DNA from: Bacteroidaceae bacterium
Lineage (GTDB): Bacteria > Bacteroidota > Bacteroidia > Bacteroidales > Bacteroidaceae
Length of the DNA: 64,000 nucleotides
Direction: 5' to 3'
Assembly: GCA_017447625.1 (NCBI GenBank)
Contig: JAFSNB010000037.1
Coordinates: forward strand, 1,630-65,629
Shown here: in pieces, positions 30,801-31,890 of the stretch
Layout: each line of letters opens with the position of its first letter
Position numbering within the stretch: position 1 is the stretch's first letter
Position numbers and translations under genes: made by a program
The notes under the pieces: generated by a model
What the model saw: the letters and a program-made list of their open reading frames with translations, nothing else
What the model was told of the DNA's origin: nothing
Database searches by the model: none

Positions 30801-31890
30801 TCCTGAAGACAACTACACCGACCGCAACAACCGCTGCCGCCACATATTCCAATTTAAGACTTGTGTCGGAACGGTCGTCTCTCTCGACTGCGCCACACGC
30901 GGTCTGGGCAACGCCAGCTGCGGTCCCGATGTGATGGATAAATACGAGCTGAAGGCCGCAAACACCCGCTTCCGCTTCGCGTTAGTGCCTCTGAAGGCAG
31001 ACGTGAAGCCCGCCGCAGCAGCGCGCTTCGAGATTCCTGTCTGTCAGCCCGTGGATTGCGAACGCATAAGCAACGGACGTATCAAGATGACCACTACGAC
31101 TCCCAAAGCCACAATCTACTATAGCATCAATGGCGGCGAGTGGCAGACCTACAGATCAACTGTTTTGCACAATGACGCCTGCGATATCCAGGCCTACTGC
31201 GCTGTCGATGGCCTCTTGGACAGTCCCGTAACCTCATTCTCTTTCCCGCTCTTCATCAACAAGGGAACGTGGCGACTCGTCAGCGTTGACAGTCAGCACG
31301 GCGGAAACGAAGCCTCCAAAGCCTTTGACAACGACCTCTCTACGTTCTGGCACACCGAATATGCCGGCAGCGAACCCTCCTGCCCGCACACGCTCATTGT
31401 AGATATGAAACGGACTTATATGGTCACCGCTTTCACCTACAACGCCCGCAACGACGGTACACAAAACGGTATGGTTAAGGACTTCGAGGTCTATCTGAGC
31501 AAGGACGGCTCCACATGGGGCAGCGCCGTAGTCTCTGGTCAGTTCGAGAACACCACCTCTACGCAGGTAAAAGCCCTTAGCACCCCCACCGCCGGCCGCT
31601 ATCTGAAATTCGTGGCCAAGTCGGAGATAAACGGCAGAGCCTGGTCTTCGGCTGCGGAAATCGGTATTCAGGCAGAGGCTGATGTGACAGGAATTGAAAG
31701 ACCCACCCCCGACCCCTCCCGTAATGGAGGGGAGGCTGGCGCGGTGTATGACCTCAGCGGCCGAAGAATAATGGTCAATGGTCAATGGTCACGTACTGTT
31801 GAGCAAAGCCGAAAAATGTTCAATGGCAAGAAGAGGAGTCTCGGCATCTTCGTCACCCCCGACGGCAAAGTCCGCAAAATCCTCTATTGA
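27808..31890 (+). CDS. Beta-galactosidase-type GH2 with F5/8 type C (discoidin) domain and T9SS C-terminal sorting domain
   Basis: Signal peptide [22 protein letters not shown]2 motifs WSLGNESG and ENSHSMGNS. Discoidin-like region [31 protein letters not shown]...[15 protein letters not shown]. The start is placed after the -7 box. Confidence 0.9.
28763..28790. repeat. AACTGTC heptamer array (4 units) inside the GH2 coding sequence
   Basis: AACTGTCAACTGTCAACTGTCAACTCTC encodes [10 protein letters not shown]. Confidence 0.75.
31782..31826. repeat. 45-bp in-frame insertion element in the GH2 T9SS domain, flanked by duplicated TCAATGG
   Basis: It is absent from the otherwise identical sequence at 35292-35420. 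It carries the core CACGTACTGTTGAGCAAAGCCGAA. Confidence 0.9.

Follow-up and report, generated by a model that had tools for sequence, protein, structure and literature searches.

A 24-Nucleotide Repeat Nested in Heptanucleotide Arrays Recurs in Secretion-Type Tails, Enzyme Loops, and Intergenic DNA of a Bacteroidales Lineage

Introduction

Among the very small repeats described in bacterial genomes, the small dispersed repeats (SDRs) of cyanobacteria are reportedly nested in tandem heptamer arrays (short tandemly repeated repetitive sequences, STRR), and the repetitive extragenic palindromes (REPs) of Escherichia coli are hairpins mobilized by REP-associated tyrosine transposases (RAYTs). Here we describe a 24-nt repeat module (referred to as the core) that is embedded in heptanucleotide arrays in a 64,000-nt stretch of DNA from a Bacteroidaceae bacterium (GenBank assembly GCA_017447625.1, contig JAFSNB010000037.1, positions 1,630 to 65,629, forward strand), hereafter called the window. 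The core came to attention as part of a 45-bp in-frame block at the 3′ end of a glycoside hydrolase family 2 (GH2) gene, in an initial annotation made from the sequence alone.

The cyanobacterial families SDR1-8 measure 21–27 nt (Elhai et al., 2008, Genome Res 18:1484, as cited in PMC3116915 and PMC5861425), and a precise insertion of SDR5 inside the highly iterated palindrome HIP1 has been described (PMC4390886). Heptamer simple-sequence repeats are over-represented in some bacteria, e.g., Xanthomonas and Nostoc (PMC4692102). Repeats that enter genes are exemplified by the Rickettsia palindromic elements (RPEs; Ogata et al., 2000), in-frame selfish DNA in protein-coding genes, which is palindromic, ~100–150 bp long, and encodes a conserved peptide (PMC10969869). 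BrickBuilt, a transposable element of the miniature inverted-repeat class (MITE) in Porphyromonas gingivalis, contains an internal 23-nt minisatellite, terminal inverted repeats, and putative target duplications, is longer than 100 bp, and is strictly intergenic (PMC4596501). Ever since the SDRs were described, the way in which repeats of less than 30 nt spread has been a standing question. For the 24-nt core family itself, no earlier description was found in the literature.

Results

Two genes in the window have almost the same 3′ end. One encodes a 1373-aa GH2 protein (Pfam Glyco_hydro_2_N, Glyco_hydro_2_C, Bgal_small_N, and F5_F8_type_C), and the other a 1088-aa GH98 protein (Glyco_hydro_98M and Glyco_hydro_98C), the Pfam matches confirming the identities first given to them. 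By alignment and exact matching, 31735-31906 of the GH2 gene and 35294-35420 of the GH98 gene are identical save for one C/T difference, which is silent (31866 in GH2 vs. 35380 in GH98), and the 45-bp block, which is present in the GH2 tail only and adds 15 residues. The identity extends 16 nt beyond the stop codon (CAAGAAACGAACACGA). The initial annotation had stated as much, i.e., tails alike base for base to about 15 nt past the stop, one silent difference, and an in-frame 45-bp block as the sole structural difference, and in these respects it was right. It had further counted the heptamer TCAATGG once at the empty GH98 site and twice at the filled GH2 site; the former count stands, but the filled site contains three (31775, 31782, and 31820). 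As to its designation of the tails as type IX secretion system (T9SS) sorting domains, the TIGR04183 profile (T9SS type A sorting domain, Por_Secre_tail) scores the tails below threshold, at 13–18.6 bits against a cut-off of 23, with a match spanning only model positions 24–57 of 72, and gives no match to the filled GH2 tail. These ends are referred to below as secretion-type tails.

The 45-bp block can be resolved with high confidence into 21 bp of AATGKTC heptanucleotides (three units) and a single 24-nt core module, in the order of two AATGGTC units, the core ACGTACTGTTGAGCAAAGCCGAAA (31791-31814), and one AATGTTC unit. The limits of the block can be shifted by multiples of the repeat. That the core is a discrete unit is seen in orthologous filled and unfilled pairs from strains 94–97% identical at the DNA level (L-numbers denote loci in metagenome contigs). 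In the gene for RfbB (dTDP-glucose 4,6-dehydratase), L076 reads AATGGTC-ACGTACTGTTGAGCGAAGGCGAAA-AATGTTC, L092 and L093 read AATGGTC-AATGTTC in an otherwise identical array, and a third allele, L094, is wholly without the array. A third secretion-type tail in the window, on the minus strand, has an ortholog (L095) without exactly the 24 nt. At the GH2 site itself, the ortholog L098 reads (AATGGTC)3 AATGTTC AATGGCA, which is the window array minus exactly the 24-nt core, with equal heptamer counts on both sides of the indel. None of these three pairs shows a duplicated flank, and microhomology at the joints does not exceed 1 nt.

With these clean 24-bp indels at three loci, the initial reading of the block, as 31 nt of inserted element and a target-site duplication of 7 bp, does not hold. 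The heptamers taken for the duplication are pre-existing tandem arrays, which are found with or without the core. As no target duplication lies on either side of the core in the three pairs, this mark of a transposon or MITE is missing; likewise, a scan for inverted repeats around 31650-31960 returned 0 pairs, the core being flanked by direct heptamers. At RfbB, the core is present in one of the eight inspected alleles that have an AATGKTC-type array, which polarizes the event and points to a recent gain.

Four occurrences of the core pattern ACGTACTGNTGAGCNNAGNCGAA were counted in the window, at 31791 on the plus strand and at 4296, 58447, and 63532 on the minus strand, compared to 0 expected from 100 shuffles. 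Besides the GH2 copy, there is one in the third tail and there are two in intergenic DNA next to a different heptamer (ATTATGN), all three of which had been noticed initially and were confirmed (Table 1). A scan of metagenome contigs returned 84 loci, most of them from a handful of samples, and the census amounts to 90 copies at ~46 distinct sites. Among 185,579 GTDB species representatives there was one true match, on a contig of a goat-rumen metagenome-assembled genome (MAG); the other six matches look like chance, with ~4 expected by estimate. The single true match speaks against a broad taxonomic distribution, and the goat-rumen contig suggests the rumen as the home of the family. A phage origin was also considered and rejected, as viral contigs gave 0 matches. 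The core and its heptamers form a family of very small dispersed repeats specific to one Bacteroidales MAG lineage, probably of the ruminant gut; NCBI proteins identical to those of the window bear the label 'MAG: Bacteroidaceae bacterium'. The initial view of a very small, frame-preserving, recombinogenic element is borne out insofar as the repeats are dispersed, act at the nucleotide level, preserve the reading frame, and are polymorphic between strains.

The family comes in two flavors. Flavor A has the core ACGTACTGATGAGCGAAGTCGAAT within (A/C)ATTATG arrays, and never lies in a convincing gene, as the longest open reading frames (ORFs) spanning it are all short. Flavor B has the core ACGTACTGTTGAGCGAAGGCGAAA within AATG(G/T)TC arrays and, more rarely, within arrays of AATTGTC or AACTGTC. 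The core subtype is tied to the heptamer flavor, with CTGATGAG...GTCGAAT accompanying ATTATGN and CTGTTGAG...GGCGAAA accompanying AATGKTC; 20 of the 24 positions are strongly conserved across both. Most copies are 0–3 mismatches from the flavor-B consensus, and degenerate copies are rare. In both flavors the core always lies exactly at a heptamer boundary and in a fixed orientation relative to the heptamers; a heptamer-like unit adjoins every copy on at least one side, and nearly all on both. A subset of arrays carries one or two cores, paired cores being 2, 3, or 4 heptamers apart, and four arrays (L014, L020, L029, and L038) hold two different core alleles at spacings that are multiples of 7. 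One core variant, GCAAAGCC, is seen in the tails of GH2 and GH98 only.

Candidate structures within the core were tried and set aside. A hammerhead ribozyme, with its CUGAUGA and GAAA cores and three helices, is not supported, as there is no Rfam match and flavor B has CUGUUGA in place of CUGAUGA, a disabling A-to-U change. A hairpin formed by the left heptamer and core positions 5–12 is plausible in flavor B only, the same-register pairing failing in flavor A. The fold z-scores of the core (−0.5 to −1.3) are not significant.

Flavor B together with its heptamers lies in frame within complete genes, including those for RfbB, cysteinyl-tRNA synthetase (CysRS), methionyl-tRNA formyltransferase (Fmt), a HemN-like radical SAM protein, PAP2, DUF1015, and GH35 proteins, and also in the loops of several secretion-type tails. 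It is read as SRTVE(R/Q)... (SRTVEQSR in the GH2 tail) or as HVLLSEGE in two forward frames, and cores in reverse orientation, found in linkers upstream of secretion-type tails, read F(D/A)(S/F)AQQYV. With two forward frames and the reverse orientation in use, a conserved peptide was rejected as the unit; the same bases are read in different frames, so the likeness lies in the DNA. As 24 nt make eight codons, and the flavor-B core and array are free of stops in two forward frames, copies can persist in genes. In CysRS, the insert takes the place of a flexible loop, (K/Q)EETGGGSG, of other homologs, the next relatives being 83–84% identical and compared at the protein level only. The RfbB loop is hypervariable across related species (homologs P0010–P0112) and filled with differing repeat types, for example HNPELNT ×6 (P0070), VSGSKFQV (P0055), and an insert rich in proline and serine (P0078).

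The GH98 tail had been taken as the untouched, pre-insertion state, and this is not supported. The 3′ end of the window GH98 gene has an ortholog, L087, that agrees with it in upstream domain and downstream flank, yet L087 is filled with the identical block of 45 bp, down to the rare core variant GCAAAGCC. The empty GH98 site of the window is therefore more simply explained by loss or conversion than as a pre-insertion state, and it seems probable that the 45 bp at the GH98 site were lost rather than that they are a gain in filled alleles. In the codons immediately upstream of the array, the window GH2 and GH98 tails have one synonymous haplotype, CGAAGAATA, in common; L098 (GH2) and L087 (GH98), which come from two different samples, each have CGCCGTGTA. 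This pattern suggests that the two tails, 3.5 kb apart, are homogenized within genomes. They would be paralogous copies kept alike by conversion, and since the last homogenization the GH98 tail probably lost 45 bp, i.e., the core and three heptamers, when heptamer repeats mispaired; alternatively, it may have been converted by a short-array tail. In the protein collection, the best match to the GH98 tail region is 56% identical, and the window GH98 protein is absent there. With GH98, presence/absence at the same loci in relatives, which the initial annotation had proposed as a check, is seen at four loci, the others being RfbB, the third tail, and GH2.

Heptamer arrays are a feature of the genome in their own right. 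The window has nine perfect period-7 arrays of at least 18 nt vs. 0.02 in shuffles, and 0–3 perfect arrays of each of the other periods from 4 to 12. The only other period in excess is 8, with three AT-rich arrays (e.g., TTATTAGT ×7) at 10467-10523, 6889-6925, and 46584-46619. The heptamer arrays lie in intergenic DNA, in linkers and loops of secretion-type tails, and in loops at the surface of ordinary enzymes; every tail array seen is in frame, and one window array supplies the stop codon of an upstream ORF. Examples in enzymes are an ArgC array (53919-53950, minus strand, in frame, EIKNYELPIMNW), the insert of which is found in all 15 listed cluster members, and a beta-eliminating lyase array (52915-52946, in frame, KWSMFNGQCSM). 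Inside the GH2 body, a perfect CAACTGT array of 3.7 units (28762-28787) encodes QLSTVNCQL. One assembly has this GH2 called as halves of 344 and 1015 aa (P0267 and P0269, on a single contig) with the break exactly at the CAACTGT array, which reflects either a frameshift by heptamer slippage, as at a simple-sequence contingency (phase-variation) locus, or a sequencing error.

The arrays also appear as joints. Among GH2 orthologs of one 90%-identity cluster, the tail is a mosaic of two linkers, four loop states, and two distal tails, the loop states comprising the array only, the array with the core in either frame, and other heptamers around a GC-rich hairpin. In L099–L101 (~4700-4880), an alternative distal tail (KKGLYIQNGKKVMVK*) is followed by GCGCAGCC and a flavor-A array without core, and beyond this array there is a fossil of the last codons of the other tail with its 3′ flank, which shows a cassette-like replacement bounded by arrays. 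The gene downstream of the GH2 tail varies between strains (GH97 in L101). In intergenic DNA, a 27-nt segment, AGGGCTGCGCGATACATCCCGCCAGGC, at 58477-58503 between inverted ATTATGN arrays is flipped in L025, L044, and L090, in all three of which the adjoining core is unchanged. An ATTCATA-type linker (63607-63637, IHNAEFTIHN) lies upstream of the third tail in the window, and L095 has at the same position a CATTGAA-type linker of about the same length (IEHVTLNIEHS), i.e., a swap of heptamer flavor. Very often, GCGCAGCC(C/T) borders the arrays on one side, as at 4490-4500, 4320-4335, and 58480-58490 in the window, and the reverse complement of the tail start (..GCTGGCGCGGTG) resembles this motif. 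This suggests that tails and intergenic arrays share a boundary module.

Further short repeats lie nearby. GC-rich hairpin elements (CCCCTCCC..GGAGGGG) at 31702-31733, 10531-10591, and 36490-36570 look like further families of tiny repeats; the first encodes a 13-residue GH2 linker, in place of which orthologs have a CATTGAA-type heptamer linker, and the last lies inside the ORF at 35855-37885, preceded by AACTGTCAACT. After the GH2 stop codon, at 31891-31960, there are AT-rich mosaic repeats of ~80 nt (AAACGAACAC..AATCT..CTAAT..ACGAAT..TTCAACATTAATTGCCATTAATT), which recur in opposite orientation near 4340-4410, with related motifs after GH98 (35405-35500). In L060 (1-900), the AT-rich mosaic consists of three tandem units of ~330–450 bp ending in GCGCAGCC, and the array and core are in the third unit only.

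Table 1. Core copies, heptamer arrays, and tail modules in the window.
Position	Strand	Feature	Remark
31735-31906	+	GH2 C-terminal tail module and 16 nt past the stop	Paralogous copy of 35294-35420
31770-31790	+	Three AATGGTC heptamer units, left of the core	
31791-31814	+	24-nt core, flavor B, locus-specific variant ACGTACTGTTGAGCAAAGCCGAAA, read SRTVEQSR	Clean 24-bp gap in GH2 ortholog L098
31815-31826	+	AATGTTC unit and partial AATGG unit, right of the core	
31782-31826	+	45-bp block as first delimited: two heptamers, 24-nt core, one heptamer	
35294-35420	+	GH98 C-terminal tail module; short array AATGGTC AATGG at 35329-35340, without core	
35258-35291	+	CATTGAA-type heptamer linker array, inverse orientation relative to the loop array, encodes NIEHSPLNIEHS	
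63531-63554	-	24-nt core ACGTACTGTTGAGCGAAGGCGAAA in the third-tail loop, other frame: HVLLSEGE	Clean 24-bp gap in ortholog L095
63512-63567	-	Third-tail array and core: AAAGTC AATGGTC, core, AATGGTC AATGTTC AATGG	
4295-4318	-	Intergenic flavor-A core ACGTACTGATGAGCGTAGTCGAAT, adjoining ATTATGN-type array at 4262-4294	
58446-58469	-	Intergenic flavor-A core ACGTACTGATGAGCGAAGTCGAAT between inverted ATTATGN arrays (58421-58445 and 58504-58535)	

Discussion

We consider the explanation as a whole, a composite repeat spread by homology-guided copying, to be slightly more likely than not. The copying mechanism proper, i.e., that homology between arrays at different loci guides the transfer, is a more tentative proposal, favored over its rivals with chances just short of even. 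The arrays would lengthen and shorten by slippage, and gene conversion or template switching, with the flanking heptamers as homology, would account for the precise gain and loss of the core. The arrays may further act as joints for the exchange of whole tail segments between genes, and selection would remove net lengths that are not multiples of three, so that only in-frame and stop-free forms stay in genes. The tie between core subtype and array flavor would favor a homology-dependent spread, and the involvement of heptamers in recombination, already entertained in the initial annotation, is supported.

Several points weigh against homology-guided copying. No donor-recipient pair was traced. 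In L007, L034, L062, and L071, only one heptamer flanks the core on a side, and 7 nt is too short for ordinary RecA-type recombination. In the pair of L098 and the window GH2 gene, not only the counts but also the variants of the heptamers are identical on both sides, which looks like a precise event in situ more than conversion from a random paralog. Conversion also gives no account of how arrays first entered CysRS or Fmt, and only one ortholog informs the polarity at GH98.

The main rival is a dedicated trans-acting enzyme that would insert and excise the core seamlessly at heptamer boundaries, whether by an IS200/IS605-like peel-and-paste, a site-specific, or another reaction; the core would then be a true mobile element, and the smallest known. 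Several observations agree with it: 24 bp are precisely gained or lost at three loci where microhomology does not exceed 1 nt, L098 and the window have identical arrays to either side of the core, some copies have a single flanking heptamer, some arrays hold two different core alleles at 7n spacing, and sequence divergence among copies is very low. We nevertheless regard such an enzyme as unlikely, though far from negligible: the core has no terminal inverted repeats, target duplication, or robust hairpin, it is absent from viral contigs, and the strict match of core subtype to array flavor is unexpected of a free transposase unless the core carries guide bases. No candidate enzyme gene was seen among the part of the window genes that was profiled, a genome-wide search not having been made. 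The further-reaching form of this idea, in which the lineage would possess dedicated machinery for 24-nt insertion and removal at heptamer boundaries and the arrays would be portable joints that rewrite secretion tails and essential-enzyme loops between strains, is in our view a little less likely again; if true, the 24-nt core would be the smallest autonomous-looking mobile DNA unit known. The model of the initial annotation, a 31-nt element inserted in the GH2 tail with duplication of TCAATGG and with GH98 as the untouched empty site, had been drawn from TCAATGG, which flanks a unique sequence in the filled tail and stands once in the empty one. It is now very improbable, as 31 and 7 bp make 38 rather than 45, three heptamers rather than two stand at the filled site against one at the empty site, heptamer arrays are widespread without the core, the clean pairs differ by 24 bp without duplication even at the GH2 site itself, and the GH98 ortholog L087 is filled.

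It is also improbable that selection maintains the core for some intrinsic function, such as a protein-binding or DNA-uptake signal, an RNA motif like a ribozyme or regulator, or a useful tail peptide, instead of the core being selfish or neutral repeat DNA. The conservation of 20 of 24 positions across both flavors, the repeated placement in tail loops, and the hammerhead-core-like CUGAUGAG...CGAA of flavor A would agree with such a function; yet the core is dispensable in near-identical strains and stands in both orientations relative to neighboring genes, and its use of two forward frames and the reverse orientation leaves no single conserved peptide. As for an RNA, no Rfam family reaches the gathering threshold across the window, no hammerhead appears up to an E-value of 10, flavor B has CUGUUGAG, which destroys the hammerhead core, stem II would measure just 1–2 bp, and no significant fold is found, so that an RNA or peptide function is unlikely. 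Least of all do we credit an assembly or sequencing artifact at a repeat: many copies do lie near contig ends, as repeats tend to, but independent assemblies from JGI and ENA, as well as NCBI MAG proteins, show the same loci in filled form, genes stay in frame on either side of the copies, and the alternative alleles are each found in several assemblies.

Whatever the mechanism, tiny repeats can remodel the loops of essential enzymes (Fmt, CysRS, and RfbB) and, in glycoside hydrolases, shuffle secretion-type C-terminal tails among strains, which bears on the annotation of rumen MAGs and on the diversification of surface or secreted enzyme repertoires. With alleles that differ by gain or loss of 24 bp in strains 94–97% identical, and with one polarized gain, the mechanism is directly testable, be it recA or a dedicated enzyme.

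Of the systems described above, the mosaic and heptamer repeats share parts of the architecture. Like bacterial interspersed mosaic elements (BIMEs), REPs, and BrickBuilt, the last of which is also from Bacteroidota, the 24-nt family consists of short motifs in mosaics with copy-number variation between strains; unlike BrickBuilt, the core has no terminal inverted repeats or target duplication. By the REP/RAYT criterion (an imperfect palindrome with a GTAG/CGTC tag), the copies show no consistent tag and only weak pairing in flavor B. With the heptamers of Xanthomonas and Nostoc, the arrays share the period-7 excess, length variation between relatives, and inverted array pairs; those heptamers, however, are G-rich and intergenic, with no embedded core reported, whereas the present ones are AT-rich, occur in coding DNA, and host a 24-nt module.

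The closest analogs appear to be the cyanobacterial SDRs, followed by the in-frame RPEs. Similar to RPEs, the core lies in frame in many unrelated genes, including metabolic ones, and is tolerated in the protein, but its unit measures 24 nt plus heptamers, lacks a palindromic structure, and has several reading frames in use, in contrast to the ~100–150 bp and one conserved peptide of RPEs. To the SDRs, compared by description, it is similar in its 24-nt size class and its many near-identical dispersed copies, as well as in precise insertion, the lack of transposon-like ends, presence/absence between close relatives, and, as is reported for SDRs, the nesting within tandem heptamer arrays; further, the genome is rich in heptanucleotide tandem arrays, as is that of Nostoc (PMC4692102). 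It differs from SDRs in its Bacteroidota host, in the copies that often lie in frame in housekeeping genes and secretion-tail loops, and in core subtypes tied to heptamer flavor, and from both SDRs and RPEs in its concentration in secretion-tail linkers and loops. By this analogy, the 24-nt family would be a second, unrelated system of SDR architecture, in another phylum.

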